The notes below the pieces were generated by a model that was not told the DNA's origin, did not search any database, and worked only from the letters and a program-made list of their open reading frames with translations. The translations under genes and the position numbers were made by a program. From contig JBDUAQ010000001.1 of the NCBI GenBank assembly GCA_040004575.1, positions 9,486-73,485 of the forward strand: 64,000 bases of DNA, given 5' to 3'. The stretch comes from a bacterium (lineage in GTDB: Bacteria; Acidobacteriota; Blastocatellia; Pyrinomonadales; Pyrinomonadaceae). Shown here piece after piece: positions 36,553 to 52,699 of the stretch (position 1 is its first letter; each line of letters starts with the position of its first letter).

Positions 36553-37737
36553 ATGCCCACTCACGATCCAATGAATGATTCAATCGAGCAGGCATTCGGC
36601 GATCTCAATCAATGGTGTCGCGAGCGCGACTTTTCCGGTTACGATCCATTCGATGCATTGAACAGCCCCGTTTTCCAGTCAACTCCTCTCAATCGTTCTC
36701 GAACAGCGCGACTAATCTGGATCCAGGCTTTCAAACGTTTCCCTCTGAACCTTCGCCCGCTGGCGCGCATCCCGCCGCAGAAGAATGCAAAAGGGCTCGC
36801 TCTTTTTGCGCTCGCGGCACTCGCAAACTATCGTCGCGTGAAAACCATCGAGCTTGAAACAGACGCGCGCGAGCTGCTTGACGAGTTATCGCAAACGCGA
36901 ATTCAAGGCTTCAGCGGCGCCGCCTGGGGTTACAACTTCGCGTGGCAAAGCCGCAACTTCTTTGCCCCGCAAGGAACGCCGATGATAGTACCGACGGCCT
37001 TTGCCGCGCGTGCCTTCATAGAAGCACACCAGGCATTCCGTGATGATAACTATCTGCGAATGGCGCGCAGCAGTTGCGACTTCATTCTCAACGACCTGCA
37101 GCGAACGCTTGAAACCGACGACGAAGTTTGTTTCAGTTACTCGCCGTCGGACAGCACCCAAATTTTCAACGCGAGTTTGCTGGCTGCCGAAACCTTAGCG
37201 AGCGTGGGGGCACTGACGGGAGAAAGAGAGCTTTGTAATTTGGCAGTCCGCGCCGCTCGTTTCGTTGTTCACAGGCAGCATGAAGATGGTTCGTGGGCAT
37301 ATGGCGTCGAGCCGGGCCAGGAGTGGGTAGATAATTTCCATACCGCCTACATGCTGCTCTCGCTCGCGAGGATTGCGAAGGCTTGCGTTGAAGCAAGCGA
37401 AGAGATCAAGCCGGCATTGCAGCGCGGTTATGCGTTCTGGCGCGAATGCTTCTTTCTTGCGGACGGATGGCCGAAATACTACCATGACAGCCTTTACCCA
37501 GCGGATGCGCACGCAGCCGCCACGGCAATCATTACCCTTCTGGAATTATCGCATTTGGATAGCGGCGCGCTGCCGTTAGCGGAAACGATTGCCGGCTGGA
37601 CTATTCGCAATCTGCACGACGACCGCGGATTTTTTTACTATCAACGCCGGCGGTTTTATACCGTCCACACGCCGTACATGCGTTGGACGCAAGGCTGGAT
37701 GCTTTACGCGCTGGCGCGTTTGCTGGAAGCGAAGTAG
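36553..37737 (+). CDS. Hypothetical protein, possibly an (alpha/alpha)-toroid fold
   Basis: The ATG at 36553 gives 394 aa. Helix-rich with motifs AWGYNFAWQSR, HEDGSWAYG and NFHTAYMLLSL. No family recognised. The 25 codons upstream are repeat-encoded. Confidence 0.5.
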   Translation: MPTHDPMNDSIEQAFGDLNQWCRERDFSGYDPFDALNSPVFQSTPLNRSRTARLIWIQAFKRFPLNLRPLARIPPQKNAKGLALFALAALANYRRVKTIELETDARELLDELSQTRIQGFSGAAWGYNFAWQSRNFFAPQGTPMIVPTAFAARAFIEAHQAFRDDNYLRMARSSCDFILNDLQRTLETDDEVCFSYSPSDSTQIFNASLLAAETLASVGALTGERELCNLAVRAARFVVHRQHEDGSWAYGVEPGQEWVDNFHTAYMLLSLARIAKACVEASEEIKPALQRGYAFWRECFFLADGWPKYYHDSLYPADAHAAATAIITLLELSHLDSGALPLAETIAGWTIRNLHDDRGFFYYQRRRFYTVHTPYMRWTQGWMLYALARLLEAK

Positions 37738-37754
37738 AACGGTGTGGGTCGATG

Positions 37755-37894
37755 AAGTCAGAACCGGGAGCGGGTAGCGACCGGGTTTGTCTTCGGATCC
37801 AAGGGGTTCGGTAGTGCAACCGCGACCTGGTCGCTACCACCACCCCACGCGGGCTGCCCGCGCGGGGACCCCGGTCCGCTCCCGGTTCTGACTT
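37755..37894. repeat. Nested palindromic element with perfect 19-bp terminal inverted repeats
   Basis: AAGTCAGAACCGGGAGCGG (37755-37773) pairs with CCGCTCCCGGTTCTGACTT (37876-37894). Internal sub-hairpins are GGTAGCGACCGG/CCTGGTCGCTACC and CCCCACGCGGG/CCCGCGCGGGG. Confidence 0.8.
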
Positions 37895-37926
37895 TGTTGG
37901 TCGCTGGTGGATGCAGGGTTATCAAG

Positions 37927-38421
37927 ATGCCGATTGGTTCCGATGTTTCATTAGGTAAAGACGTAAAGATTTTCCAGCCGGAGCTGGTTAACCTTTACGG
38001 TTGCACCATCGGCGCCGAAACGAAGATCGGGGCGTTTGTTGAAATCCAAAAGAACGCATCAGTCGGCGCGCGTTGCAAGATTTCATCGCACACCTTTATT
38101 TGCGAAGGTGTGACGATTGAAGATGAAGTCTTTGTTGGCCACGGCGTAATGTTCACTAACGATCCCTATCCGCGTGCGGTCAACGATGACGGCAGCCTGC
38201 AAACTGACGACGATTGGACCGTGGTTGCCACACGTGTGAAAAGGCGAGCGTCAATCGGAAGCAATGCGACGATTATGGCGGGCGTGACGATTGGCGAATC
38301 TGCCCTGGTTGGAGCAGGGGCGGTGGTGACGAGCGATGTGGGTGATTATGCGATTGTCGCCGGCGTGCCGGCGAGAGTGATTGGTGACATAAGAAAGCGG
38401 CGCGACCCAAACCCAGAGTAG
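37927..38421 (+). CDS. Left-handed beta-helix sugar N-acetyltransferase (WbpD/WlbB-like)
   Basis: The ATG at 37927 gives 164 aa. Hexapeptide repeats (IGAETKIGAFVEIQKNASVGARCKISSHTFI ... IGSNATIMAGVTIGESALVGAGAVV). Confidence 0.75.
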   Translation: MPIGSDVSLGKDVKIFQPELVNLYGCTIGAETKIGAFVEIQKNASVGARCKISSHTFICEGVTIEDEVFVGHGVMFTNDPYPRAVNDDGSLQTDDDWTVVATRVKRRASIGSNATIMAGVTIGESALVGAGAVVTSDVGDYAIVAGVPARVIGDIRKRRDPNPE

Positions 38422-38454
38422 CGCGTTCCTGGTTTGCGTATCTTCTTTGTGCAA

Positions 38455-38530
38455 TCTCCGTGTCCTCTGTGACTCTGTGGTGGACGATCCACGAAACCCT
38501 CACCACAGAGGACACAGAGGATGCACAGAG
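38455..38530. repeat. Palindromic element, CCACCACAGAG family (copy 2 of 3)
   Basis: CTCCGTGTCCTCTGTGACTCTGTGGTGG - 18 nt - CACCACAGAGGACACAGAGGATGCACAGAG. Confidence 0.7.
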
Positions 38531-38596
38531 AAAGTCAAGCCGCACGAATCCGATTACCCGATCGCAAACGCTGTTCGTTTCTGATAGAGATTACGC

Positions 38597-39607
38597 ATGA
38601 TAAAAGTTGGAGTTATCGGCTACGGCTACTGGGGTCCTAACCTGGTGCGCAACTTCATGGAGGCACCAGGCTCCACCGTTGTCTACGTTTGCGATCTGCG
38701 TACAGAAAGATTGGGAACGCTCAAGGTGCGTTATCCAACGATTAAGACTGTCGACAACTGCGGCGAGTTGTTTGCGGACCCGGCAATCGATGCGATCATC
38801 ATTGCCACGCCCGTCTCATCGCATTTTGACTTGGGTATGGCAGCACTCAAAGCCGACAAGCATGTGCTGATTGAGAAACCGCTCGCCGCAAACTCCGAAC
38901 AGGCGATGCAGTTGATTGAAGAGGCGCGCGCGCGCAAACGCGTTTTGATGGTGGATCACACCTTCGTTTACACCGGCGCGGTGCGAAAGATTCGCGAGCT
39001 CATCACGTCCAACGCCCTCGGCGACATTTACTACTACGACGCGGTGCGCGTTAATCTGGGACTCTTTCAACACGACGTGAATGTGATTTGGGATCTGGCG
39101 ATTCACGATCTTTCGATCATGGACTATGTGCTGCCGAACAAGGCGACCGCTGTTTCGGCCACCGGCATCAGCCACATTCCGGGTCAACCTGAAAACGTGG
39201 CTTACATCACCCTCTTCTTCGCGAATCCGCAGATTGCGCATGTTCATGTCAACTGGCTGACGCCCGTCAAGGTCAGGCACACGCTTATTGGCGGCAGCGA
39301 GAAGATGATCCTCTACGACGATTTGGAGCCGAGCGAGAAGGTGAAAATATATGATAAGGGTGTAACACTTTCGCAAAGCCCGGAGGCAGTTTACGAAATG
39401 CTCGTAAGTTATCGTTCCGGCGATATGTGGGCGCCGCGACTCGATGGGACGGAAGCGTTACAAACTGAAGCACAGCATTTCATTGATTGTATTGAAAACG
39501 GCAAGCAGCCTGTAACTGACGGCGAGGCGGGTTTGAGACTGGTGAAGATCGTAGAGGCTGCGGAAAAATCCTTGCAGGCTCGCGGTCAACTGGTCGACAT
39601 CAATTAA
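38597..39607 (+). CDS. Gfo/Idh/MocA family oxidoreductase (WbpB/WlbA-like)
   Basis: 336 aa. N-terminal Rossmann IKVGVIGYGYWGPNLVRN, and the EKPLA motif (VLIEKPLAANSEQA). Confidence 0.8.
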   Translation: MIKVGVIGYGYWGPNLVRNFMEAPGSTVVYVCDLRTERLGTLKVRYPTIKTVDNCGELFADPAIDAIIIATPVSSHFDLGMAALKADKHVLIEKPLAANSEQAMQLIEEARARKRVLMVDHTFVYTGAVRKIRELITSNALGDIYYYDAVRVNLGLFQHDVNVIWDLAIHDLSIMDYVLPNKATAVSATGISHIPGQPENVAYITLFFANPQIAHVHVNWLTPVKVRHTLIGGSEKMILYDDLEPSEKVKIYDKGVTLSQSPEAVYEMLVSYRSGDMWAPRLDGTEALQTEAQHFIDCIENGKQPVTDGEAGLRLVKIVEAAEKSLQARGQLVDIN

Positions 39608-39611
39608 CTGT

Positions 39612-39782
39612 TTGGAGTGCGGCGACGTGAGCACCCCAGCGCGGCTGCCGCGCCGGGGACCCCGCCTGTCGCCGCTTTCCTTGGTCGCGGCTTGACGCGA
39701 CCATCGTGAGTTGAGTTCAAGTGGCGAAATGTGGCGTCAAGCCGCCACGGACAAAAAGCGGCGACAGGTCGCCGCACTCCAA
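39612..39782. repeat. Nested palindromic element with perfect 15-bp termini TTGGAGTGCGGCGAC / GTCGCCGCACTCCAA
   Basis: A second inner pair is CCTGTCGCCGCTTT (39664-39677) with AAAGCGGCGACAGG (39755-39768), and further sub-hairpins are present. It ends 4 nt before the aminotransferase ATG. Confidence 0.8.
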
Positions 39783-39786
39783 AAAT

Positions 39787-40905
39787 ATGATTCCTTTAGT
39801 AGATCTAAAAGCGCAATACCAGAGCATCAAGAGTGAAATTGATGCCGCCATCGCAGAAGTACTGGAAAGTTGCCAATTCATTTTGGGCCCAAAGGTTGAA
39901 GCCTTTGAAACGGATTTCGCGGCGTACTGTCAATCGCGTTTCGCGTTCGGCGTAAACTCCGGCACCAGCGCGTTGCATCTGGCCTTGCTGGCGGCCGGCG
40001 TCGGTCCCGGTGACGAGGTAATTACCGTTAGTTATACCTTTGTCGCTACCGTTGCTGGAATCCTGTACACCGGAGCAACGCCGGTTTTCGTCGACATCGA
40101 TCCGCTTACCTGCAATATCGATCCGGCAAAGACTGAAGCGGCGATCACTCGAAAGACGAAAGTGATCGTGCCGGTGCATCTCTACGGAACCTGCGCCGAC
40201 ATGGATCCAATCCTTGACATTGCGCGCCGGCACAAGCTGATTGTGATTGAAGATGCAGCCCAGGCCGTCGCCGCCGAATACGAGGGACGGCGTGCCGGCA
40301 GCATGGGCGACCTTGCTTGCTTTAGTTTTTATCCAGGAAAAAATCTCGGCGCTTACGGTGAAGCCGGCGCAGTAGTTACCAGCAATGAAAAATACGTCGA
40401 CGTCATTAAGCAATTGCGCGATCAGGGACAAAGCGCCAAATATTTCCACGAGCGAGTTGGTTACAACTATCGCATGGAGGCAATTCAGGGAGCGGTGCTT
40501 GGCGTTAAACTCAAGCATCTCGACGATTGGACTACCGCACGTCGTCAGCACGCCAAAGCGTATTCAGAAGCGTTGGCAGATTCAGGCGTGCGTTTACTTG
40601 CGGAACCGGCCGCTTGCAAGTCTGTCTATCACATCTTCCCGCTGTTTACGGCGCAGCGCGATGAGCTGCGCGAACATCTCGAGACCAATGGGATCAGCAG
40701 TGGCATTCATTATCCGATTCCAGTCCATATGCAACGCGGCTTTAGCAATCTCGGATACAAGGAAGGCGACTTGCCACAAACCGAACAAGTTTGTCGCGAG
40801 GTCTTATCATTGCCAATGTACCCTGAGCTCAAGGATGAAACCGTAATGCAGATCGCGGCTTCGGTGCGACAGTTTTGCCGGCAAGCGGTGGCGGTTCACC
40901 CTTAG
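39787..40905 (+). CDS. DegT/DnrJ/EryC1/StrS family PLP-dependent sugar aminotransferase (WbpE/WlbC-like)
   Basis: The ATG at 39787 gives MIPLVDLKAQYQSIKSEIDAAI ... FILGPKVEAFE ... SFYPGKNLGAYGEAG (PLP-Lys region). 372 aa. Confidence 0.85.
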   Translation: MIPLVDLKAQYQSIKSEIDAAIAEVLESCQFILGPKVEAFETDFAAYCQSRFAFGVNSGTSALHLALLAAGVGPGDEVITVSYTFVATVAGILYTGATPVFVDIDPLTCNIDPAKTEAAITRKTKVIVPVHLYGTCADMDPILDIARRHKLIVIEDAAQAVAAEYEGRRAGSMGDLACFSFYPGKNLGAYGEAGAVVTSNEKYVDVIKQLRDQGQSAKYFHERVGYNYRMEAIQGAVLGVKLKHLDDWTTARRQHAKAYSEALADSGVRLLAEPAACKSVYHIFPLFTAQRDELREHLETNGISSGIHYPIPVHMQRGFSNLGYKEGDLPQTEQVCREVLSLPMYPELKDETVMQIAASVRQFCRQAVAVHP

Positions 40906-40915
40906 ATCTGTGATC

Positions 40916-41029
40916 GAGAAGAAACATTTCTCTGTGCCGCCTTTGTGCTCTCTGTGCCTCAGTGGTGGCTGTTCTCCATGATGATCCACCACAGAGACAC
41001 GGAGATCACAGAGATTTCACGGAGGCGGA
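40916..41029. repeat. Palindromic element, CCACCACAGAG family (copy 3 of 3)
   Basis: ...TCTCTGTGCCTCAGTGGTGG - 18 nt - CCACCACAGAGACACGGAGATCACAGAG... Confidence 0.65.
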
Positions 41030-41064
41030 AATTGTTCCCCTGGCTCACTGCCGGCTGTTGCTAA

Positions 41065-42090
41065 ATGCGAATCTGGATCGATCTGGCAAACTCACCGCAC
41101 GTGCCGTTCTTCCGCTCGCTCGCAAGTCAGTTTATTCAACGTAATCATGAAGTAGTCGTCACGGCGCGGGACTTCGCCGAAACAGTTCCACTTGCAGAAG
41201 CAGCCGGGTTTGCGCCCCAGGTTATCGGCGAACACGGCGGCGGAAAACTTTCAGGCAAAGCGGGAAACCTGGTGCAGCGCGCGCTTGCACTCGGACGTTG
41301 GGCGCGCGGACGAAACCTCGACCTTGCCGTCAGCCACAACTCGTATTCTCAAATCCTGGCGGGGCGCGCGCTGTCGTTGCGGACAGTCACGCTGATGGAT
41401 TACGAACATCAGCCGGCAAACCACCTAGCGTTTCGCATGGCTTCACGCATCATTGTTCCGCGTGCGTTTCCCGAAGCAGCGCTGACGCGTTTTGGCGCGT
41501 CACCTGAGAGAGTACGGCGATATGACGGTATCAAGGAAGACGTTTACCTCGCCGACTTTCAAAGTGATCCCGAATTTCAAAACCAACTCGGCAAACTTGG
41601 AATCAGCGCGAGCGACGTGTTGGTGACCGTGCGCCCCCCCGCAGTGAAAGCGCTTTATCATCGTTTTGAAAATGAACTGTTTGACCAATTGCTCAATCGT
41701 TTGTTAGCAACGCCCGCGGTGAAAGTTTTGCTATTGCCGCGCAACGATTCACAACGGACGACCTACAGCGCTCGCGGCGAGGCAGATGCAAACCTGATCG
41801 TGCCGCCGCGTCCAATTGATGGCAGCAATTTGATTGCACATAGCGACTTGGTTGTCAGCGCCGGCGGCACGATGAATCGAGAAGCCGCCGCTCTCGGCAT
41901 TCCGGCGGCGTCGATCTATTTAGGAGAATGGGCGGCGATAGATGAGCAGTTGGTGAATGAAGGCAGGCTGCGAAGAGTCTCAACGGCCGCAGACGTTCAC
42001 GATATGCTCATACAGAAAAAGGGCGCCGCGAATGCGCCCCGGGCAGTACATGTTGCCGCGAGCGTGGCTGATCTGATCCTCGAAGCGTGA
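41065..42090 (+). CDS. DUF354 domain-containing protein (GT-B / UDP-GlcNAc 2-epimerase-like fold)
   Basis: 341 aa. The N-terminus MRIWIDLANSPHVPFFRSL is the characteristic DUF354 start. C-terminal GGTMNREAAALGIP. Confidence 0.7.
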   Translation: MRIWIDLANSPHVPFFRSLASQFIQRNHEVVVTARDFAETVPLAEAAGFAPQVIGEHGGGKLSGKAGNLVQRALALGRWARGRNLDLAVSHNSYSQILAGRALSLRTVTLMDYEHQPANHLAFRMASRIIVPRAFPEAALTRFGASPERVRRYDGIKEDVYLADFQSDPEFQNQLGKLGISASDVLVTVRPPAVKALYHRFENELFDQLLNRLLATPAVKVLLLPRNDSQRTTYSARGEADANLIVPPRPIDGSNLIAHSDLVVSAGGTMNREAAALGIPAASIYLGEWAAIDEQLVNEGRLRRVSTAADVHDMLIQKKGAANAPRAVHVAASVADLILEA

Positions 42091-42130
42091 AGTTTTGCTA
42101 TCCTATGCCTTTCGGCTTAAGAAGGAATCT

Positions 42131-42186
42131 GGACAGGATGAACAAGATTTACACGATTAGCTATTTGCATCCTGTCAATCCTGTCG
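42131..42186. repeat. Small inverted repeat GACAGGATG ... CATCCTGTC (CCTGTC reiterated)
   Basis: 9-bp arms at 42132-42140 and 42168-42176, with a second CCTGTC at 42180-42185. Confidence 0.4.
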
Positions 42187-42215
42187 TCTAGTTATCCCGG
42201 GTGTTGCGAAGATAA

Positions 42216-43772
42216 GTGAGAGTTGAGCAAATCAAAAATCCGCTAGTTGAAGCAAGCATTGTGCGCGCTCCGTCGCGTGCGCCGCATTGGGTCATACCGA
42301 CAATCAAGACTGCCTTGCTTGTGGCTGATGGTTTAATAGCCACGGCCTCATTTATCGTCGCCTACTACGTTCGGGAAGGTGGTCCGATATTTCAACCGTC
42401 ACGCGTTGCCAGTTTCGCGTGGAGCGCAAGATTTGCTCCTTACGGCGCGTTGGTCCTCTTTGTGATTCTCATACGCGTGCTTGCTTTGCGCTATTACGAT
42501 CTCTATCGGCTGCGCGGCGAGTTCTCTTTCTTTGACGACGGCATACGAGTCTTCAAGTCAACGGCCATCGGATCATTGCTTATAGTAGCGGCAGCGTTTT
42601 TATATCGCGGCGGTTTCAACTATCGCGCCTTCTCATATGCCCGCAGTGTTTTCGTACTAGACTTTCTAATCGCGCTGGCTAGTTTCTATTCGGTTCGATT
42701 GCTGTTGCGCAGTGCACAGATTTTTTTCCGCTTGCGTGGCATCAATCTGATTCCAACTCTGGTGGTTGGTCGCGGCCCCGAAGCCGCTTTCTGCATTAAG
42801 GAAATGCGCGAACGTCCCTCGCTCGGATACCGGGTGATAGGCGCCGTCGACAGCGGCGCTCTCGGCGCGGAAGTCCCGGGGCTTTACGAAGGCGTGCCCG
42901 TCGTAAGCGATCTCGCGGGACTGCCGGAAGCCATCCGCGAGTCGGGCGCCAACGAGGTAATCATCGCTGACTCTCACGTTGATGGCGACGCGCTCTTCGA
43001 CGTAATGATGCGTTGCGGCCGTCGACGCGGCATTGAGTTTCGTATCGCCCCCAGCCTCTTTAATTGTTTGCCGAGTAAAACTGAAGTCGATCAAATTGGC
43101 GCCTTGCCAATGATCAGGCTTTTTCGCGAGCCGCTCTCCGACTTTGCTCGTGGCACTAAGAGGATTTCCGATATCGTCATAGGTGTTGTCACGCTCGCAT
43201 TGTTTTCTCCTTTCTGGCTTTTGATCGCGCTGCTTATCAAGTTTGACTCGAAAGGTCCGGTTTTTTATGCCCAGGAGCGCGTGGGCATGGACGGCCGGAT
43301 TTTTGTAGTTTACAAATTCCGCACCATGCGCGTTGATGCCGACAGCGAGATTCATCGCGAGTATCAGCGAAAGTTTATCGCCGGGCACGCCGAAGCAAAC
43401 GTAGGCGACGCGCAGAAGCCCGCATATAAACTGCGTGACGATCCGCGCATCACGAGCGTGGGACGCATGCTGCGTCGTTTAAGCCTTGATGAAGTGCCGC
43501 AACTGTTTAATGTGTTGCGTGGTGACATGAGCATCGTTGGCCCACGTCCACCGATTCCTTATGAAGTCGAGGCTTACGAATTGCGGCATCGGAAGCGTCT
43601 CGATATGAAACCGGGCCTGACTGGACTGTGGCAGGTGTCTGGGAGAAACCGTCTGCCTTTCGAAGAGATGGTGAAGTTAGATCTGTTCTACATTGAGAAC
43701 TGGTCGCTGCTGTTTGATCTGAGGATTATTCTGCGCACGGTGCTGGTGATGCTGCGAGGGGATGGGTACTAG
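42216..43772 (+). CDS. Polyprenyl glycosylphosphotransferase (WbaP/EpsB-like priming sugar transferase)
   Basis: 518 aa. Four to five N-terminal TM helices, a central Rossmann-like region, and a C-terminal bacterial sugar transferase domain (KRISDIVIG ... GPVFYAQERVG ... YKFRTM ... DEVPQLFNVLRGDMSIVGPRP). Confidence 0.85.
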   Translation: MRVEQIKNPLVEASIVRAPSRAPHWVIPTIKTALLVADGLIATASFIVAYYVREGGPIFQPSRVASFAWSARFAPYGALVLFVILIRVLALRYYDLYRLRGEFSFFDDGIRVFKSTAIGSLLIVAAAFLYRGGFNYRAFSYARSVFVLDFLIALASFYSVRLLLRSAQIFFRLRGINLIPTLVVGRGPEAAFCIKEMRERPSLGYRVIGAVDSGALGAEVPGLYEGVPVVSDLAGLPEAIRESGANEVIIADSHVDGDALFDVMMRCGRRRGIEFRIAPSLFNCLPSKTEVDQIGALPMIRLFREPLSDFARGTKRISDIVIGVVTLALFSPFWLLIALLIKFDSKGPVFYAQERVGMDGRIFVVYKFRTMRVDADSEIHREYQRKFIAGHAEANVGDAQKPAYKLRDDPRITSVGRMLRRLSLDEVPQLFNVLRGDMSIVGPRPPIPYEVEAYELRHRKRLDMKPGLTGLWQVSGRNRLPFEEMVKLDLFYIENWSLLFDLRIILRTVLVMLRGDGY

Positions 43773-44371: not shown

Positions 44372-45853
44372 GTGACTGAAGAAAATGAAGTGAAGAGTAA
44401 AGCGGCGAAGGCACTTGATTCGGCGATCGTAGCTTTTCTTTTTCTATTCGCCGCCGCGGCGCCAAACTCAATTGCCGCCACCCAAAGCGCATGGTTGATC
44501 GGGCTGACCTTGTGGCTCGCGCGTTTCGCATTCCAGCCGCGGCCTAAAGTTCACCGAACGCCGCTTGACTATTTCGTCCTCGGCTTCTTTATCCTTACCG
44601 GTCTTTCATCTTTCCTCTCCTACGAGCCGATGGTCTCGATCGGAAAGCTGCGGGCCGCAAGTCTCTTCACCATTATTTATCTGTTTGTCGAAAACGTGCC
44701 TTCACTGCGAGTTGCCCGTTGGCTCGCGGTTACGCTCATCTGCGCGTGCATGGTCAATGTTTTCTACACCGCCGGTGAGCGCCTGCTGGGGCGGGCCGTA
44801 GAAGTTCATGGCGTCTCGGAGAATAGTCCTCTCTACCAGGCCGGCATTCGCGACGGCGATACGCTGCTCGAGGTTGACGGACAGAAGCTGCGAGAGCCGC
44901 AAGAGTTGGTTAATGCACTCCTAAAACCGGACAAGAGTCCGGTCAAAGTTCTCACTTACCGTCATGAGTTGCAACCGGTCTTCAAGATTCCGCGAGGAAG
45001 CCTTTTGCCTGGTAACACTGTGCTGGAACAATTGGGCGTTGGGAGCTGGTCGCGAGGACGCGATTGGCGGGCGACTGGTTTCTATGGCCAGTTCGTAACT
45101 TACGCCGAAGTACTGCAGTTGATCATTGCGCTTGCGATGGGAATTTTTGTGAGCTTGCCGGTAAAGCGGAGTTGGGCCGGCGCCTTGTTGCTGATTGCGC
45201 TTGCCGGATTCGGCGGCGCGTTAATGTTAACTGTGACTCGCGCGTCGTGGCTGGGTTGCCTGGTATCTACTCTGATCGTTCTCCTCCTCGGTGTTCGGCG
45301 ACGCACGCTGATTCTCATGGGCGTGTTGGCGGTACCGCTGATACTGGCGGGCCTTTTCATCCTACAGCAAAAACGTAACGTTGCTTTTATCGATCAAACA
45401 GATCAATCGACCACCTGGCGCGAAACCGTGTGGCGAGAAGGTGTCAACTTATTGGTGAGCAAACCTCGCCATTTGCTGGTTGGGGTTGGCATGGACTCGA
45501 TAAAGGGGCACTGGCGCGCGTGGGGTATGTTTGACAACGGCCGCATACCCTGGGGCCACATGCATTCCAACCTGTTGCAAATCGCGCTGGAACGCGGCGT
45601 GCCCGCTCTAGTGCTCTGGCTGGCATTCCTCTTCTTTTACGCGCGAACTCTTTGGCGTTCACTGCGCAAGGGTCGGCAACTCGAGTGGATGGAACGCGGA
45701 ATTCTATTGGGAGCGTTAGGCGGACTGGTTGGGTTCTTTACGTCCGGACTGGTGCACTACAACTGGGGCGACTCGGAGGTGGTGATGGTCTTGTACATGA
45801 TTATGGGGTTAGCGTTGGCAATTCATCGCCATTCCGGATTTGCAAATCGATGA
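44372..45853 (+). CDS. O-antigen ligase/polymerase-like (Wzy_C) membrane protein with an embedded PDZ domain
   Basis: 493 aa, polytopic. Wzy_C-like TVTRASWLGCLVSTLIVLLLG. PDZ-like insert at about nt 44790-44990 (VEVHGVSENSPLYQAGIRDGDTLLEVDGQKL ... VKVLTYR). GTG start with GAAGGA Shine-Dalgarno. Confidence 0.7.
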   Translation: MTEENEVKSKAAKALDSAIVAFLFLFAAAAPNSIAATQSAWLIGLTLWLARFAFQPRPKVHRTPLDYFVLGFFILTGLSSFLSYEPMVSIGKLRAASLFTIIYLFVENVPSLRVARWLAVTLICACMVNVFYTAGERLLGRAVEVHGVSENSPLYQAGIRDGDTLLEVDGQKLREPQELVNALLKPDKSPVKVLTYRHELQPVFKIPRGSLLPGNTVLEQLGVGSWSRGRDWRATGFYGQFVTYAEVLQLIIALAMGIFVSLPVKRSWAGALLLIALAGFGGALMLTVTRASWLGCLVSTLIVLLLGVRRRTLILMGVLAVPLILAGLFILQQKRNVAFIDQTDQSTTWRETVWREGVNLLVSKPRHLLVGVGMDSIKGHWRAWGMFDNGRIPWGHMHSNLLQIALERGVPALVLWLAFLFFYARTLWRSLRKGRQLEWMERGILLGALGGLVGFFTSGLVHYNWGDSEVVMVLYMIMGLALAIHRHSGFANR

Positions 45854-45988
45854 AGCATGGCGCTTCGGCCCAGGATCTAGGTGTCTCTCAAAATCTCCCG
45901 CAACCCATCGATATCTAGCCGGACTTCTCTGAAAGCCACAGGCTGTCGTGCCTGCCACCGAGGACCCGTAGCAAAACTTGCTAACGGA

Positions 45989-46022
45989 AAAGCTTGAGTC
46001 GGGCGAACCCGACTCAAGCTTT
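45989..46022. terminator. Perfect 15-bp stem / 4-nt loop hairpin
   Basis: AAAGCTTGAGTCGGG-cgaa-CCCGACTCAAGCTTT. U-tracts are short on both strands, so the strand assignment is open. Confidence 0.5.
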
Positions 46023-46464
46023 GCCTGCTAGATGACTGGCGATCGGAAAAACGTGAGGCGCGACTCCGACGATTGGCCAAAGTAATCTCGACGTATCAAA
46101 CTTGATTAGGCGGAAGCGCCAAACCACAAGTTGAACTCGCCGGTAGAGCGTGCGACTTAGTCCGACGGGTGTATGTAACCCCTCAGAACATTTGCTTGAC
46201 TAACGGAGAACGTTAGCCCATTCGAGCTGCAGTTTGTCGAATTGTTTGGAACGATTTCCATCATGCTCACACCTTCTGCAACGGCTGTTACTTACCCGAG
46301 TCTAAAGACCTCCAGGTTCCTTTTGGCATATTGCTTGCCAACTATCATCGCGCGAGCGCTTTATTAGCGTTTTTCTCGCCAAATTGAACGATCTTTGAGG
46401 AGAAGGGACGCATATTGACTGATCTGTCCGTCGCGATGACCTAGCGGCCTTAGGAAACCAATGT

Positions 46465-46677
46465 TTACAGAATCACGCCAAGGATTCCCAAAAGGACACT
46501 GATGGGTAAACCGGTGATGTCGCCGGGCTTGCCAGTGATGTCGCCAGGCTTGCCAGTGATGTCGCCAGGCTTGGTAGTGATGCTGCCGGCCTTGCCAGTG
46601 ATATCGCCTGCCAGCGCGACCGATGACATTGCCAAGGTTAAGAGCACAGCGCAAAGGATTGATTGGATGCGTTTCAT
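46465..46677 (-). CDS. Small exported/membrane protein built of five GDITGKP-type heptad repeats
   Basis: 70 aa: MKRIQSILCAVLLTLAMSSVALA | GDITGKA GSITTKP GDITGKP GDITGKP GDITGLP | ISVLLGILGVIL. AGGAGA Shine-Dalgarno 6 nt before the ATG. Sec-type signal peptide with an ALA cleavage motif. Confidence 0.6.
   Translation of the reverse strand: MKRIQSILCAVLLTLAMSSVALAGDITGKAGSITTKPGDITGKPGDITGKPGDITGLPISVLLGILGVIL
46511..46615. repeat. Tandem 21-bp repeat x5 (coding repeat of the heptad peptide)
   Basis: Units begin at 46511, 46532, 46553, 46574 and 46595. Units 2 and 3 are identical (CCAGTGATGTCGCCAGGCTTG), and unit 1 differs from them at 2 positions. Confidence 0.9.
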
Positions 46678-46795
46678 TTTAATTCTCCTGGTTACGGGCG
46701 ATTAACTGAAATGGTTCGCTAGAATGGGGGTCTGCCACTTTCGGATGTCAACTCTCGTTCTAGCACCAATTATCAACTTGTTCGTCCCTCCCTAT

Positions 46796-46811
46796 TTCAA
46801 GGCTTGTGCCA
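46796..46811 (-). promoter_or_regulatory. Sigma-54-like promoter candidate upstream of the heptad-repeat peptide gene
   Basis: The minus strand reads TGGCAC-AAGCC-TTGAA. The -24 box and spacing are perfect; the -12 box has A instead of the conserved C. It lies about 120 nt upstream of the ATG at 46677. Confidence 0.4.
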
Positions 46812-47171
46812 CGAGAGCATCGGGTCTTGTAGAACCTGTTAAGTAACTGAAGCATCGCAAGTTACGCGGTCGTTCTGGTCGAGAAGAGACCCTAGACCCA
46901 TAACACGGAAAACTGGATAGCAGGTATGCAGACAAGGCGCAAACCAAACTGCAAATGCACGAAAGCCCCGCAAAAGTCCAGATTCTATAAGGCACGGGTT
47001 GCTGTTACCGCAGTATGCAGGTGTATACCTGATAGCCAACCCTCTTTTGAATCCCTGGCGAATCTGAAAATCTCTGCGGTAAATCACCCTGATTAGCTAA
47101 TCGTTGCCGCCACCTTAAAGTTCTTGAATAAAAAGAACAGTCCCAAGCCACGCTAAACAAACTAGATCGCA

Positions 47172-49610
47172 ATGCGACTGATACAAGCGAACTCACTTCC
47201 GCACATCGAAAACTCGCGAGCGACACTCAGCGAGCAAGTGCTGCAGTGTTGTAACACCGCCCGTGAAAAGCTTGAGGTAGGCGACTATGATGCGGGGTGC
47301 GCGGCGCTTCATCCCTGGTGGACGGTCGGAGAATGGCCCAAGCAAACTGGCCTCAGCCAAGTGGCCGCTGCGGAACTACTACTCAGCGCTGGAACTTTAA
47401 ACGGGTGGGTCGCCAGCACGAGGCAAACTGCCGGCGGACAAAAATCCGCTGAACGACTGTTGAGCGGAGCAATTGCCTTGTTCGATCACTCAGGCGCGAC
47501 GATTCGTTCCGCCGAAGGTCGTGTCGAACTTGGTTTCTGCTATTACCGCCAGGGATTGTTCGACCTTGCACGTAAGACGCTACGCTCGTCGCTGAATGAT
47601 CTCACCGCCGAGGAGATTGAACTGAAGGCGATAGCCGCGATCCGTCTCGCCTCAGTCGAGCGTCATGCCAGTCGACTACATGATGCCCTTAGCCTGCTGA
47701 ATGAATTGGCACGCAGTAGTGATTCGCTAAGTCCTTGGACCAAGGGACGATTTCATCTTGAGTTTGCAACCACATTGAAGAATCTCGGTATTGCCGAGGG
47801 CCGCGATGGATATTACGACCGAGCCCTGGGCCACTATCAGGATGCCCTCGAACATTTTGAGAAAATCGGTAACCGTCGTTATACGGCGATCGTTGAAAAC
47901 AATCACGGCCATTTGCTTTCAGCCTTGAATAGATTTGAGGAAGCACAACGCCACTTGGGGCGGGCACGCAAGCTTTTCGATGAACTCGGCGATAGCGTAA
48001 GACGGGCGCAGGTCGATGAAACTTTGGCGCAACTCTATTTGGGTTCCAAGCAATATGAAATGGCATTGCGGTCTGTTTGTCGTGCCGTTGAGACTATGGA
48101 AACAACCGGGGAAGAAGCCTTGCTCGCCGAAGCCTTAACTACGCACGGGCTCGTGCTCTGCAGGTTGGGCCGGCGCCATGAAGCAAAGCCTATTCTGGAA
48201 AGGGCCACACGGGTAGCGGAGCGTTGCGGGGACCACGATGGGGCCGGGAAGCCGCTATTGATTTTGATCGAGGAGATGTGCGAGCACTTAGGGGAAGACG
48301 AGCGCCATGAGCTTGGTGCGCATGCCAGCCAGTTGCTTGCAAACTCCCAGCAAGCCCCCACCCTTATGCGATTGAGAAACTGCCTCGAGCGGATTGCTGC
48401 GGCGCAGGCCGAGCAAGAAGAACTACGCGAGCGAGCTAGTCACGCGGAGAAGATGGCCGCGTTGGGGGAACTGTCCTTTGGTGTGGCCCACAACGTCAAC
48501 AACACGCTGACCGGGATTTTGGGTCGCGCGCAGTTGTTGTTACGAACAAAGGACGCGGAAAAAATCAGCTCTGGCATTGAAATGATCATCAAGGGCGCGG
48601 AGGACGGTGCGCACATTATCCGCCGCATTCAGGACTTCGCCCGCAGGCAGCCGAGCCGCAAGTTCCAGGCGGTTTCCGTGGCGGGGTTGATGAAAGATGT
48701 TTGCGAAATGAGCCGGCCGCGCTGGGAAGGACGCGGCGGTCTTCCGCCAATTCGTCTGGCGCTGGTCACTGACTGCACCGCCTCAGTAATGGGTGATGCG
48801 GTAGAGCTGCGAGAAGTGCTGGTGAATATGATTTACAACGCAATCGATGCGATGCCGACAGGCGGCGAGATTCGCCTGAGTTCGCATGAAACGAACGGGC
48901 GCGTTGTCTTGACCGTCGCCGACAATGGCATTGGCATGACGCCGGAAGTTAAGTCGCGACTGTTTGATCCTTTCTTCACTACCAAAGGCAAGGGCGGCAC
49001 CGGGATGGGAATGGCGGTGAGCTTTGGCATCATTCGAAGACACGTCGGTTCTATTGAAGTCGAAAGCGAACCAGGCCGTGGCACTACTTTCCGCATCTCG
49101 CTCCCTATCGCCGAAAATGCCGGCCTCGACCCAGAGACCGAGTCGACGCGACTCGAAGCTTTAGCTGGAGTGGAGAGGATACGAGTGCTTGTCGTTGATG
49201 ATGAAACGGCAGTTCGAGAAGTGCTTCGCGAGGCGCTGGAAGCGGAAGGCTGTGAAGTACTCGTAGCCGAGAGTGGCGAGATGGCCCTGAGAATTTATGA
49301 TGCCCGGGCCGGTAGACTCGACGTAGTTTTCACTGATATTGGCATGCCAGATATGAGCGGCTGGGAACTCGCGAGCGAAATCCGTAAACGATCAGAAACG
49401 ATACCGTTAGCGATTGTAAGTGGCTGGGCAGACGCGATCAGTTGCGACGCCCGGCAGGCAATCAAAGCCGATTGGGTAGTTTCCAAGCCTTTTGATATTT
49501 CTACAATCGCCGGGATTGCGAATGAAGTCGCGACCCGAAGAAACGGCGTGACGAATATCAGACGTGAAATGGCTAACAAGGACGTACGTGCGCTCCTGGG
49601 TATTACTTAA
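47172..49610 (+). CDS. Soluble hybrid sensor histidine kinase/response regulator with N-terminal TPR array
   Basis: 812 aa with no TM segment. TPR-like repeats over about 400 aa, H-box ELSFGVAHNVNNTLTGILG, N/G boxes (NMIYNAIDAM, DNGIGM, GTGMGMAV), and a C-terminal receiver RVLVVDDE ... DVVFTDIGMPDMSG. Confidence 0.85.
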   Translation: MRLIQANSLPHIENSRATLSEQVLQCCNTAREKLEVGDYDAGCAALHPWWTVGEWPKQTGLSQVAAAELLLSAGTLNGWVASTRQTAGGQKSAERLLSGAIALFDHSGATIRSAEGRVELGFCYYRQGLFDLARKTLRSSLNDLTAEEIELKAIAAIRLASVERHASRLHDALSLLNELARSSDSLSPWTKGRFHLEFATTLKNLGIAEGRDGYYDRALGHYQDALEHFEKIGNRRYTAIVENNHGHLLSALNRFEEAQRHLGRARKLFDELGDSVRRAQVDETLAQLYLGSKQYEMALRSVCRAVETMETTGEEALLAEALTTHGLVLCRLGRRHEAKPILERATRVAERCGDHDGAGKPLLILIEEMCEHLGEDERHELGAHASQLLANSQQAPTLMRLRNCLERIAAAQAEQEELRERASHAEKMAALGELSFGVAHNVNNTLTGILGRAQLLLRTKDAEKISSGIEMIIKGAEDGAHIIRRIQDFARRQPSRKFQAVSVAGLMKDVCEMSRPRWEGRGGLPPIRLALVTDCTASVMGDAVELREVLVNMIYNAIDAMPTGGEIRLSSHETNGRVVLTVADNGIGMTPEVKSRLFDPFFTTKGKGGTGMGMAVSFGIIRRHVGSIEVESEPGRGTTFRISLPIAENAGLDPETESTRLEALAGVERIRVLVVDDETAVREVLREALEAEGCEVLVAESGEMALRIYDARAGRLDVVFTDIGMPDMSGWELASEIRKRSETIPLAIVSGWADAISCDARQAIKADWVVSKPFDISTIAGIANEVATRRNGVTNIRREMANKDVRALLGIT

Positions 49611-49612
49611 CC

Positions 49613-52600
49613 TTAGGCGCTCGCGCTTAGTTGATAACGCTCGAGCTTGAGATAGAGGCCGCGCCTGGTGAGTCCGAGTTCGCGAGCAGCGCGCGAAATA
49701 TTACCGCTGTGCTTACGCAGGGCGTCAGCGATCATACGGCGCTCCACGTCAGCAAGGGCGTCAGCCAGGGTGATGTTTTGCAAGGAACTGACCGGCATTG
49801 AAGCCAATGTCGAGGCTGGCGAGCTGGGTGTTGCCGGCGCAGAAGTGCGCTTTAATTCCGGAGAAAGGTGGTCCGGAGTTATCACCGTTGCATCTTCGGC
49901 GCGAGCCACTACTCGTTGAATCTCATTACAGAGTTGCCGCACGTTACCCGGCCAGTCGCTCACCATTAACAAGTCAACCGCCGGCGGGGTGATTTGAATA
50001 TCCCGGCGGCCGAACTTTGCCGAGTAGTGGTTAATGTAGTAGTTAACGATCGTCGGAATCTCCGACCGCCGCTCACGCAACGGAGGCACGCGCAGACGGA
50101 TCACGTTGAGGCGATAATAAAGATCTTCTCTAAACTTACCCTGCGCGACCATCTCTTCCAGATCAGTGTTTGTAGCCGCAATGATTCGCACGTCGACCTT
50201 CATTGGGCGCTGTTCCCCGAGCGGTTGAATCTCACCTTCCTGCAGGAAGCGCAGCAGCTTTGGTTGCAGATCAAGCGGCAGGTCTCCAATTTCGTCGAGA
50301 AATAGCGTGCCGCCCGCGGCAGTGCGAATCACTCCGGCGGAATCTGTCACCGCGCCCGTAAACGCTCCGCGGCGGTAACCGAACAGGTACCCTTCAGAAA
50401 GCTCTTTGGGAACCGCAGTGCAGTTAAACGGAACGAAAACTTTCGAACGACGAGTCGAGAGCGCGTGTATAGCGCGCGCTACTAACTCCTTGCCGGTTCC
50501 AGATTCTCCCGTGACGAGGACAGTCACGTCCGAAGATCTAATCTTATGAACTTCTTCGACGAGTTTTGTCATCGCCGGGCTGGAGTGAATAAAGCCGGGC
50601 ATGAGACTGGTGCCGGCGAGTTCAGCTGGTTGCTGAACTCGCGAGCCTTTCTGAGAACCGGTTCGCAGGGCGCAGACGTCCATACCAAGTTCTGCCACGC
50701 GCATTAGCGGTGCGAGCGAAAGTCCGCCCGGCAGATTGGCCCGGCTGCTGGGCGAGATATAGAGCGTCGCTGGCGGAGCATGAGATGAGCGAAGCTGGAG
50801 AATAGCCGCGTCGTGCTTTTTTGCGTAAGCAGCTTGTGATTCGTCATCGATCAACTGATCCATCTGTTCGGCAATCTTTGCGCTTTCAGCCGGTGTGCAA
50901 CCATGGGCGATGACTACACGTCTTCGATTGTGTTCGCCCAGTTCGGTAATGACCACGGATTTTGCATTCGTTTCCTGCCGCATGATTGCCGCGAGCTCTC
51001 GCAACAAAAGTTCGCGGGAGGTTACCGCTTCGGCGAGCCGGAGGGTAAGCAACTGAGGCAGGGCTGACTGCTCCTCGTTTCTTTCGGGCGCCGTACGATC
51101 GAGGTTCGCCAGAGCGGCCTCGGCTCGCTTCTGCTCAAGCTTAGCTCCCAGCTCGCGAAACGCGTTGACGGCGCGCGAGAGATGTTCCGTGGCCCGGCTT
51201 GGCTGGCGGGAAGCGTAGGCGCGTCCCAATTCGCTATGAGCGCGCGCGGCGCGATAACGATCGCCGAGCATGTCAAAAATTGAAACGCTGCTGCCGAAGT
51301 GTTGGGCTGCCGAGGGGAAGTCAGACTGCATTGCTGCCAGCATGCCCATGAGTCTTTGCGACTCGCCGGCAAAACTCAGGTCCGTAGTCGAGTCGGTTGT
51401 TTCCTCCGCTACCTTGTCTAACTGCGCTGCGCATTTTTCCGGCTCGCCGGTTTGCAGATGCGCTTCCGCCAAAATCAAGCGCGACTCGCATATTGCCTGA
51501 CGATCACCGATGACTTTGGCGGCCGCAAGCGCCTCTGCTCCTTTTGACAAAGCCTTTGCGTGGTCTTCCATGGCGAGATAGCAGCGTGCCAGGGTTCTGA
51601 GCGCCTGACCCGCATACCATTTATTGCCATCCTCAGTGGCGAGCCCGACAGCGCGTTCGAGATAGTCCTTGGCTTCATCAAGCTCTCCGCGCAACATCAG
51701 TAATTCGCCGAGCGAGTCCAGAATCATCGGCACTTTTTCGGCGCGTTCGTCCGCTTCGGTTGCCAACGACAGGGCGCGCTCCAGGGCTTCCTGAGCGCGA
51801 CCCCATTGGCCCATCAAAATCAGATTAATGCCGAGGTTGTTGTACCCATTTGCGGCATTGCCTTTATGGTCGGTGCGTTCGTAGTAGGAGATCGCCTTCT
51901 CAAGATAGCGGATCCCTTCCTGCGGACGTTTTAGAAACCAGCAGGCGCCCGCCATGTTGGCGTAGATTTTTCCCAGGGTGTAACTCGCCGGATGATCGCC
52001 AATGAGTTTAAGGGCCTGCTGTAGATTCTCGAGGCTGGCTTCGTAATCGCCTTCCTGCAGATCGGCCAACGCAATCCCAAAATATGCTTCGGCCAGGCCA
52101 CGCCATTCACCAGTTTGCCGGAAATGATCCAACGCCCGCTGGGCGTAGTCGCGAGCAATCGGATATTCAGTGATGCTGCGATATACGCGCGCCAGAGCTG
52201 CATAGATCGGGCCATTGTTCTGTTCCGCGTCAGTCTCCGAAAACTCTCGCAACGCGCCCTTAAGAATCGAAATAGCCTTGGGATGATCGCCGTCGTAGTT
52301 GTAGGCAAGCCCAATCTGGACCTTGAGCGATTGAATGGCCTGTAGGTCAAGTTTTGCACGTGATTCGGGCGATTCGTACATCGCCACCGCAGCCAGTGAT
52401 TCGCGATACTGACCTTGCATTTCGAGCGCCGTGGACAGAGCACATCGTGCAAGAGCGAGAATGGAAGGATTGTTTTTTGCCGCCGCGATCAATAGCGCTA
52501 TTCGAGACTTGGCTTCCGCAGAGAGACCCTGGTCGAGAAGGGAGCGAACTTCGTCCAACTCTTGCAGTAGGTTTTGTTGCGAAGGACGAGCTCGGGAGTT

Positions 52601-52699
52601 CAGACGCACGCGTGCGTCTGCGAGATCGACCACGCCCTTGCCGCTTGAGGATTCATTTGGCGGCGGGCTATCAGCCTTGGAGCCTGCGTTCTTAGTCAT
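49613..52699 (-). CDS. Sigma-54-dependent transcriptional activator (bEBP) with a long N-terminal TPR array and no receiver domain
   Basis: 1028 aa. About 600 aa of TPR repeats, a GAF-like linker, AAA+ Walker [13 protein letters not shown], the sigma-54 contact motif GAFTGA, and a C-terminal Fis-type [25 protein letters not shown]. Confidence 0.85.

Follow-up and report, generated by a model that had tools for sequence, protein, structure and literature searches.

A small repeated-core peptide of soil Pyrinomonadaceae covaries with the TPR domain of the neighbouring histidine kinase and is a candidate signal for it

Introduction

The described systems that come closest to the locus treated here are those of the RRNPP type, which are known from Bacillota and their mobile elements (PMC10075063, PMC9765709). 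They are recognised by a pro-peptide of 10-100 amino acids, Sec secretion, a receptor of 250-500 amino acids, tetratricopeptide repeats (TPRs), and the position of the genes next to each other (PMC10075063). Tandemly duplicated pheromone units have been documented in Phr pro-peptides (PMC5199041, PMC11343458), and a parallel to the mating pheromones of fungi has been drawn for them (PMC5199041). Here we analyse a 64,000-nucleotide stretch of DNA, hereafter the window, from a bacterium of the family Pyrinomonadaceae (Acidobacteriota, Blastocatellia; assembly GCA_040004575.1, contig JBDUAQ010000001.1, positions 9,486 to 73,485), and in it a small open reading frame, ORF1 (46465..46677, minus strand; all positions are those of the window unless a locus is named), together with its neighbour, the gene of a histidine kinase with a TPR sensor domain.

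ORF1 had been pointed out in a reading of the DNA alone (the original prediction) as the gene of a secreted protein made of short repeats. Such an arrangement has a counterpart in the pro-pheromones of the yeast alpha-factor type, which have a signal peptide and tandem identical peptides with spacers, in a copy number that varies between alleles. Peptide signals with cytoplasmic TPR receptors are, on the other hand, regarded as a speciality of Bacillota. To our knowledge, cell-cell signalling is essentially undescribed in Acidobacteria, which are among the most abundant soil bacteria, and our literature searches found no account of the ORF1 family, nor of peptide signalling in Acidobacteria or Blastocatellia. 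We lean, although not strongly, towards the explanation that ORF1 is a multi-copy signalling pro-peptide whose specific receptor is the TPR domain of the kinase encoded next to it.

Results

ORF1 encodes a candidate pro-peptide of 70 amino acids, and both its homologs and the pattern of synonymous sites fit this frame. The signal peptide, five units and tail of the original prediction are all present: a predicted signal peptide of 23 residues (MKRIQSILCAVLLTLAMSSVALA; 46609-46677, minus strand), five units of seven residues (46504-46608, minus strand) in the order GDITGKA, GSITTKP, GDITGKP, GDITGKP and GDITGLP, that is four with the core GDITG and one with GSITT, and a hydrophobic tail of 12 residues (ISVLLGILGVIL; 46468-46503, minus strand), which has neither a PEP motif nor a basic cluster and is followed by the stop codon. 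The Shine-Dalgarno sequence AGGAGA, also seen before, lies 6 nt 5' of the ATG and is unchanged in 49 homologous leaders, and the near-identity of the 21-bp units was confirmed as a tandem array of 4.5 copies at 46514-46608 (Tandem Repeats Finder), in which units 3 and 4 differ by 1 nt. The signal peptide had been called Sec-type, and its features, as read from the sequence, agree with this: a KR n-region, a hydrophobic segment with a Kyte-Doolittle value of 2.11 (residues 3-27), and A-L-A before the first unit. This layout is common to the whole ORF1 family, and throughout it the predicted signal-peptidase site adjoins the first unit. No described family could be named earlier, and none was found now, as comparison with Pfam and NCBIfam gave no family match and only matches at the level of the signal peptide. 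One of the latter was PhrK (E = 0.06), with a score well under the cutoff of that model.

A search of 5.8 billion proteins with ORF1 returned 35 small homologs, of which the named ones are from Pyrinomonadaceae. Loci L011-L083 were added by scanning species-representative genomes and metagenome contigs, and a profile search of 1.84 billion cluster representatives gave many further small members; the large proteins that the profile also matched are unrelated heptad-repeat proteins and were not counted in the family. Locus L005 (ERZ25039511 contig_34539) was left out of the statistics because it is on a long-read contig full of frameshifts that break up or garble every gene, the ORF1 homolog P0028 among them. 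The 71 distinct homologs, from Pyrinomonadaceae/Blastocatellia, have a constant architecture of a signal peptide, 2-8 copies of a five-residue core and a hydrophobic or amphipathic tail with a median length of 18 amino acids and a variable extreme C-terminus, and the complete ones are mostly 51-114 amino acids long. The core type varies by genome, with 22 modal cores among the 71 genes (for example GNISG, GNITT, GDITG, GDITS, GQISG, GDMTG, GTIST, GDIYG, GDLDG and GNIHG).

In 67 of the 71 genes the same core is spelled in two or more ways at the DNA level, with 1043 synonymous codon differences. When units of one gene are compared with each other, 359 codon differences are synonymous and 36 non-synonymous, all 36 from a single gene with two core types, and in the first 19 loci the differences between units at codon positions 3, 1 and 2 number 374, 40 and 16. 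As the variation is almost all synonymous, the minus-strand frame of ORF1, whose conservation had been proposed as a check, is the selected one, and selection, beyond the homogenisation of repeats, keeps the units identical. ORF1 is a real, conserved coding gene of an undescribed family in soil Acidobacteria. The number of units was expected to vary, and it does so between close relatives: near-identical alleles have 2, 3, 4 or 5 copies of GDITS (P0034, P0029, P0022 and P0011, respectively), and further allele pairs have 7 and 6, 5 and 4, or 6 and 4 units. The heptads of the original prediction are not a structural period. The spacing is 7 amino acids in 136 of 240 intervals and 6-42 in the others, and it is mixed in half of the genes that have three or more units, which favours independent units, strung like beads, over a structural heptad.

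The kinase gene (47172..49610, plus strand) encodes a soluble hybrid histidine kinase of 812 amino acids, with a TPR sensor (residues 1-405; 47172-48386, plus strand; matches to TPR_12, TPR_2 and other TPR models), HisKA, HATPase and receiver (REC) domains. It lacks a transmembrane segment, the best 19-residue window having a Kyte-Doolittle value of 1.14, which is under 1.6. A comparison with the genes beside the TPR kinase had been proposed from the start and turned out to be decisive: ORF1 and the kinase gene are divergent neighbours in every locus with enough flank, the kinase is the sole invariant neighbour of ORF1, and its TPR domain covaries with the core. For this comparison 34 full-length kinases were divided into a TPR half and a catalytic half, and the distances between cores were compared with those of each half (Mantel tests). 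Core distance correlates with TPR distance at r = 0.62 and with the distance of the catalytic half at r = 0.16, and the partial correlation of core and TPR given the catalytic half is 0.65 (p = 0.0002). Along the kinase the correlation is highest at residues 81-240 and gone past residue 400. A comparison based on identity over the whole kinase had first suggested that receptor and peptide do not covary, and this was reversed when the two halves were taken apart.

Since the DNA that codes for the TPR domain is close to ORF1, linkage was tested as the cause. Stretches located between the repeats and the DNA for the TPR domain follow the core much less closely than that domain, with r = 0.09 (protein) and 0.22 (DNA) for the signal peptide, 0.25 for the leader and 0.34 for the region of the upstream site, and for sequences at a similar distance on the other side the values are 0.19 for the 3' block and 0.22 for the C-terminal tail. 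For proteins encoded nearby, r is 0.14 (partial r = -0.06) for the TPRs of an enhancer-binding protein, 0.16 (partial r = -0.04) for the whole of a Wzy_C protein and 0.21 (partial r = 0.04) for the PDZ region of the latter, and the kinase TPR domain holds r = 0.53-0.67 in the subsets used for these neighbours. ORF2, a second small gene on the other side of ORF1, shows no covariation with the TPR domain and tracks the phylogeny of the catalytic half. In bootstrapped neighbour-joining trees, the TPR half unites the kinases whose cores end in T/V at 96% (78% with L076), a group that spans two clades of the catalytic half and has 0% in the tree of that half, whereas the catalytic tree supports a different clade at 100%, which has 0% in the TPR tree.

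The covariation can be followed to single residues. Where core position 4 is S, kinase residue 161 is T or I (21 of 21 loci), and where it is T, residue 161 is S (21 of 23), a rule that holds in 42 of 44 loci; D at core position 2 goes with N204 (16/16) and N with D or E at 204 (23/23), without exception in 39 loci. The first pair is a size-compensating swap and the second a reciprocal swap of acid and amide. Out of about 530 variable kinase columns these two are the top outliers, with z = 19.3 for 161 and 12.7 for 204 (next-best 11.1 and 7.3), and by parsimony, run on a TPR tree built without the columns under test, they show the most coincident changes of any column, about 7 for position 4 with 161 and about 5 for position 2 with 204. 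Core position 5, G/S or T/V, goes with changes of L196 to S/T, I240 to A, R95 to A and R277-R278 to G/S-C, and of the eight columns found with one core class only, none falls outside the TPR domain. The candidate specificity residues in the window are S161 (47652-47654, plus strand) and N204 (47781-47783, plus strand), with L196, T238, I240, R277, R278 and R95 as further candidates.

As a prospective test, cores were predicted from the receptor residues of five unpaired kinase homologs before their loci were viewed. One of these loci, P0082, ended at a contig edge, and the other four could be scored; their cores are GTIST (L084), GTITG (L086) and GTISG (L087 and L088). Position 2 is non-acidic in all four, and position 4 was right in both firm calls. 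The covariation rules mostly held, and generalise imperfectly but clearly better than chance. At the level of sequence, core and kinase TPR domain covary residue by residue, which supports recognition of the peptide by this domain.

An AlphaFold2 model of kinase residues 1-410 has 19 helices and a predicted local distance difference test score (pLDDT) of 92.8. Residues 161, 196/204, 238/240 and 277/278 are on odd-numbered helices of consecutive repeats in this model, and the invariant N243 and N244 share a helix with 238 and 240. With Foldseek, the best E-values were to the peptide-binding TPRs of LGN/Pins. Complexes of Rap with Phr peptides have template modelling (TM) scores of 0.60/0.67 at 10-17% identity, the highest when normalised by target length, and by the query-normalised score subunits of the anaphase-promoting complex (APC/C; TM 0.63) are level with them; the modelled resemblance to Rap-Phr is one of fold only.

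Upstream of ORF1 there is a candidate sigma-54 promoter, P1, with a -24/-12 element (TGGCACAAGCCTTGAA; 46796..46811, minus strand) of the invariant form GGCA(C/T)-N5-TTGA. All 49 distinct leaders (49 of 49) have this motif equally far from the ATG, with N5 varying. It has the footprint of a sigma-54 promoter in which the GG-N10 spacing is exact but the invariant A at -12 is unusual. No sigma-70-like promoter was found 5' of ORF1, and rpoN is absent from the window. About 200 bp upstream of P1 is a candidate activator site, TAxC-N-GTATACACCTGCATAC-N3-GGTAACA (47001..47037, minus strand), in which GTATACACCTGCATAC is a 16-bp palindrome between TTACC/GGTAA arms; it is conserved in 19 loci and occurs only once within the window. 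A second conserved box, GTATAC/GCATAC (46910..46931, minus strand), is a candidate activator half-site, and between upstream site and promoter the conserved columns TTCA-N5-TTAA (46839..46851, minus strand) are like an element for integration host factor (IHF), a match to consensus that was judged by eye.

The 5' untranslated region contains a hairpin closed by GCTAGAA/TTCTAGC (46718..46764, minus strand). An equivalent one is present in the minimum free energy fold of nearly every homolog, with different stem sequences, and is thermodynamically ordinary (mean z -0.47); RNAalifold on a MAFFT alignment of the leaders gave no consensus fold. The closing stems differ by clade (GCTAG/CTAGC, AGTTCA/TGAACT, TCGGG/CCCGA and GCTTGAC/GTCAAAGC), which may hint at compensatory change.

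Downstream of ORF1 the original prediction saw about 440 nt of untranslated sequence, and took ORF1 to be the only convincing gene of the gap. This stretch is in fact occupied. It holds a near-invariant non-coding block (46371..46441, with TCAAAGATCGTTCAATTTGGCGAGAAAA on the ORF1 strand; strict pattern in 46/66 loci) that is better conserved than the coding sequence beside it and contains TTGAAC-N5-TTTGAAG, i.e. direct repeats of TTGAA with a pitch of 11 bp, and TTGAC about 31 nt further. The block resembles a protein-binding site, possibly for the winged-helix TPR regulator that is found in other loci. Next to it is P2, a palindromic site like a sigma-54 promoter, which reads TGGCATATTGCTTGC on the plus strand (46324..46340; pattern in 63/66 loci). 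On this strand it has the canonical GG-N10-GC (TGGCAT-N5-TTGC). The T before TGC was left free in the search, and yet TTGC is complete in 62 of 62 sites read; the ORF1 strand retains the first G of its GG in only 49 of 62. It is the plus strand that carries the invariant GG and TTGC, so transcription from P2 most likely runs through ORF1 in the antisense direction, toward the kinase gene, and P2 as a promoter of ORF2 on the ORF1 strand was rejected for the same reason. Its transcript would then be antisense to ORF1, and the kinase gene, which starts at 47172 on the same strand, may be expressed from it. This convergent layout recalls that of the prgQ/prgX promoters of plasmid pCF10. A short GC hairpin with a T-run lies about 25-45 nt downstream of P2.

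ORF2 (46157..46264, minus strand) encodes a peptide of 35 amino acids, MMEIVPNNSTNCSSNGLTFSVSQANVLRGYIHPSD, whose motif is found in 58 of 64 loci and which was also recovered as a protein family. Its C-terminus, NVLxGYIxPSD, is conserved (GFIPPxE in one divergent clade), and its variation falls at third codon positions. ORF2 lacks a signal peptide and gave no match in Pfam or NCBIfam. The free acidic C-terminus could make it a ligand of TPRs; some homologs are extended by a hydrophobic stretch, YSVAITFGLVGLGG. The perfect 15-bp hairpin at 45989..46022 is present as described, with a free energy of about -31 kcal/mol on either strand, and a hairpin of changed sequence has the equivalent position in type-A loci. 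It is probably a bidirectional terminator shared by ORF2 and the convergent Wzy_C gene. The RNA function suggested for the 3' stretch found no support: Rfam gave no match for the whole window or the gap, at the gathering threshold or at E <= 1, RNAalifold on the 3' block found no consensus fold but only the promoter palindrome, and the stretch is accounted for by ORF2, the DNA-level block, the promoter on the opposite strand and the shared terminator. As to the AT-richness of the gap, the description stands in a milder form, since its GC content is 0.48-0.54 against 0.54-0.58 in the flanks.

The other neighbours of ORF1 vary more. Next to the kinase gene in most loci is that of an enhancer-binding protein (49613..52699, minus strand; 1028 amino acids) with N-terminal TPRs, a sigma-54 AAA+ domain (GAFTGA at 778) and HTH_8, and no transmembrane segment, which is presumed to be the activator of P1 and P2. 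In the window and in most relatives the gene order is SRP54, NAGPA, enhancer-binding protein, kinase, ORF1 and ORF2, Wzy_C with PDZ, and glycan enzymes, where ORF1 and ORF2 are convergent with the Wzy_C+PDZ gene and a polyprenyl glycosylphosphotransferase and sugar-modifying enzymes follow. In the window the Wzy_C protein (44372-45853, plus strand) is a membrane protein of the O-antigen ligase-like kind that has a PDZ insert (about residues 142-195), an unusual pairing that is conserved in type-A loci. Wzy_C and PDZ are missing in L006, L018, L021, L024 and L026, where the kinase is retained. Their place is taken in L006/L007 and L026 by a winged-helix (Trans_reg_C) regulator with TPRs (L006 10638-13163; L026 8230-10785; also at the 5' ends of L086 and L087), and in L018 (6518-9475, minus strand) and L021 (6536-9499, minus strand) by a protein of about 985 amino acids without Pfam match, and L024 has different downstream open reading frames. 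In L084 and L086-L088 the winged-helix TPR regulator, ORF2, ORF1, the kinase and the enhancer-binding protein are all together. The TPR domain of this regulator is 52-54% identical to that of the kinase, and relatives of the kinase sensor domain in the databases are fused to REC and HTH_8 or to sigma-54 AAA+, or stand alone.

An exopolysaccharide cluster extends over 33312-43772. Its amidotransferase and glycosyltransferase, and the activator at 49613-52699, match XrtA/PEP-CTERM-associated models (amidotransferase, glycosyltransferase and response regulator), all just below cutoff; neither an exosortase nor a PEP-CTERM protein turned up in the window open reading frames that were scanned, and membership of an exosortase system was ruled out since all family models were under their cutoffs. 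The open reading frame at 36478-37737 (419 amino acids) has no family match. Further away in the window are an M61 glycyl aminopeptidase with a C-terminal PDZ domain (6367-8298, plus strand), which is 38 kb off and is mentioned since the peptide units begin with Gly, two very large proteins with CarboxypepD_reg and an outer-membrane beta-barrel, similar to TonB-dependent receptors (11859-15263 and 18643-22389, both minus strand), and a TPR/CarboxypepD_reg protein at 22469-23479.

Discussion

The functions that the original prediction listed for ORF1 included that of a signalling peptide, and among these it is the one that the evidence favours. We imagine that P1, with the upstream palindrome and the TPR enhancer-binding protein, would bring about transcription of ORF1, and that the product would be exported by Sec and cut by signal peptidase between ALA and G, exactly at the first unit. 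Outside the cytoplasm the chain would be cut into its units, and the small peptides released would re-enter the cell and bind on the concave side of the TPR superhelix, near residues 161 and 204, which would change the output of the kinase or of a phosphorelay. Export, proteolytic release, re-import, the effect on the kinase and the identity of the genes that it controls are steps that we infer.

Several observations weigh against this scheme. The window has no peptide importer and no processing protease, the inter-unit spacers (KP, AP, TAA, RD and others) share no cleavage motif, and because the host is diderm a released peptide would have to pass the outer membrane both on leaving and on re-entering. 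Nor does the scheme give a role to the conserved hydrophobic tail at the C-terminus. The -12 element of P1 reads TTGA in 49 of 49 leaders, with a spacing of GG-N10-GA, where TTGC is canonical, and the enhancer-binding protein has no receiver domain, which bears on any feedback from the kinase to P1. As to the receptor, the split at core position 5 into G/S and T/V is a single step on the TPR tree, and it is the numbering of the helices in the model that would place 161 and 204 in the concave groove. In the prospective loci position 2 is T where N was predicted, and position 5 was right in three of four, with a firm prediction that failed for L088. The winged-helix TPR paralog also breaks the rule for 161 and 204; its residues being off the rule, it may read a different ligand, perhaps ORF2.

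Some of these difficulties disappear if the kinase reads the units inside the cell, on the precursor before export, with the repeats as a multivalent scaffold or as a means of monitoring export, and without any loop of secretion and re-import. The same covariation of core and TPR domain would be explained equally well, as would selection for several identical units, and a fully cytoplasmic kinase would need neither an importer nor two crossings of the outer membrane. However, the N-terminus looks in every respect like a cleaved Sec signal peptide, and family-wide the cut is predicted at the first unit, which implies rapid export. The unit count also differs freely among close alleles, from 2 to 8, and a scaffold of fixed stoichiometry would hardly allow for this. 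We find this explanation unlikely.

It is also conceivable, but rather unlikely in our opinion, that ORF1 is an output of sigma-54 regulation, an envelope or effector protein, and that its match with the TPR domain comes from shared inheritance or exchange of one DNA block. The TPR-coding half is within about 0.5-1.7 kb of ORF1 and the kinase gene is mosaic, and the conserved sigma-54 promoter elements upstream and the hydrophobic tail, which suggests association with a membrane, would suit such a protein. Against this, the core is followed so much more closely by the TPR domain than by the sequences in between, and ORF2, on the far side, goes with the kinase-half phylogeny. The signal is also in single residues and not in blocks, and these have been swapped reciprocally (D/N with N/D, S/T with T/S) some 5-7 independent times, which linkage does not predict.

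The explanation that was favoured first is that ORF1 is an acceptor for glycosylation or an anchor for a polysaccharide, with the convergent Wzy_C-type enzyme acting on it and the PDZ insert gripping its hydrophobic C-terminus, as for an acceptor of O-glycosylation of the PglL/Wzy_C type. In type-A loci, including the window, but in no others, ORF1 is indeed next to Wzy_C+PDZ, a polyprenyl glycosylphosphotransferase, an aminotransferase, an oxidoreductase and an acetyltransferase, most cores have S/T, and AP-rich spacers occur. It was dropped because of the synteny and the lack of covariation, and we now regard it as improbable: the kinase stays in the five loci that lack Wzy_C, the winged-helix TPR gene has its place in L084 and L086-L088, and neither Wzy_C nor its PDZ region covaries with the core. 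Cores without a hydroxyl at position 4 exist (GDLDG, GNIHG), the extreme C-terminus to be gripped is not conserved in the family, and a strong terminator stands between the ORF1/ORF2 side and the Wzy_C gene. The missing covariation and the loci without this neighbour leave two other functions of the original prediction unsupported as well, the substrate for modification and the matrix or surface peptide.

A precursor of a ribosomal modified natural product or bacteriocin with repeated core peptides would be small, with a well-conserved N-terminal region and a hypervariable mature part, as is the case here, but it is very improbable as no locus type has a modifying enzyme, dedicated transporter or immunity gene, the N-terminus is like a Sec signal and not like a leader, and the partner that covaries is a sensor domain. 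A non-coding repeat or RNA is argued against by the codon pattern and the negative RNA searches.

If ORF1 and the kinase are signal and receptor, this would be the first peptide-pheromone system in Acidobacteriota, and the first RRNPP-style peptide in a diderm that is re-imported and read by a cytoplasmic TPR protein, with a TPR-hybrid kinase as receptor, expression by sigma-54, and more than 20 pherotypes matched by pocket residues 161, 204, 196, 240 and 277/278. We put this forward tentatively, as possible but short of probable. It would extend an RRNPP-like logic to a diderm phylum and add a kinase as output module. It would also provide a clean natural specificity code, in which position 4 S or T is matched by 161 T/I or S, and position 2 D or N by 204 N or D/E. 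The many pherotypes would imply discrimination of kin or strains among uncultured soil Pyrinomonadaceae, and the adjacent exopolysaccharide genes are possibly the output that is controlled.

There are known systems that the locus resembles in parts. The XrtA/PEP-CTERM loci with PrsK, PrsR and PrsT also have a histidine kinase, a sigma-54 activator and TPR proteins beside an exopolysaccharide cluster, and small secreted proteins with hydrophobic C-termini. ORF1, however, is without the PEP motif and the C-terminal basic cluster, no exosortase was detected, and the activator has TPRs in place of a receiver domain. With the pro-pheromones of the yeast alpha-factor type the ORF1 family shares the signal peptide, the tandem copies, the spacers and the variable copy number, but its spacers are not of the dibasic Kex2 type, the receptor class is unrelated and the host is a bacterium. 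AgrC/AgrD, ComP/ComX and ComD/CSP are similar in that a peptide is read by a histidine kinase, as we suppose for ORF1, and that the variable peptide covaries with the sensor half; a conserved catalytic half and a mosaic kinase gene are likewise found at those pherotype loci. The sensors of these kinases are polytopic membrane domains that read the peptide extracellularly, whereas the kinase linked to ORF1 has a soluble TPR sensor.

In comparison with the RRNPP systems, the pro-peptide is of the right size, the receptor candidate has TPR matches and a covariation that points to recognition, and the two genes are divergent direct neighbours. The candidate receptor is larger than the range given for the group, as its 812 amino acids comprise a TPR module of about 405 and HisKA, HATPase_c and receiver domains, and it has no homology to Rap, Rgg, NprR, PlcR, PrgX or AimR, with only generic TPR and kinase matches in Pfam and NCBIfam. 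The differences are that the host is a diderm of the Acidobacteriota, that the receptor would be a TPR-HisKA-HATPase-REC protein and not a TPR protein of 250-500 amino acids with a helix-turn-helix (HTH) or phosphatase-type N-domain, that the ORF1 family has up to 8 units followed by a hydrophobic tail, and that the locus has sigma-54-type promoters, an adjacent TPR enhancer-binding protein and a second small peptide gene. As in Rap-Phr, a small gene for a Sec-type pro-peptide lies beside that of a cytoplasmic TPR receptor candidate, and the putative signal has about 5 residues with several unit copies per pro-peptide. As three of the five features of the group are present, and Sec export agrees by sequence features, while receptor size and homology do not, we consider the locus RRNPP-like in its working, not a member of the group, and it would have in common with RRNPP systems that peptide and receptor diversify jointly into specificity types.

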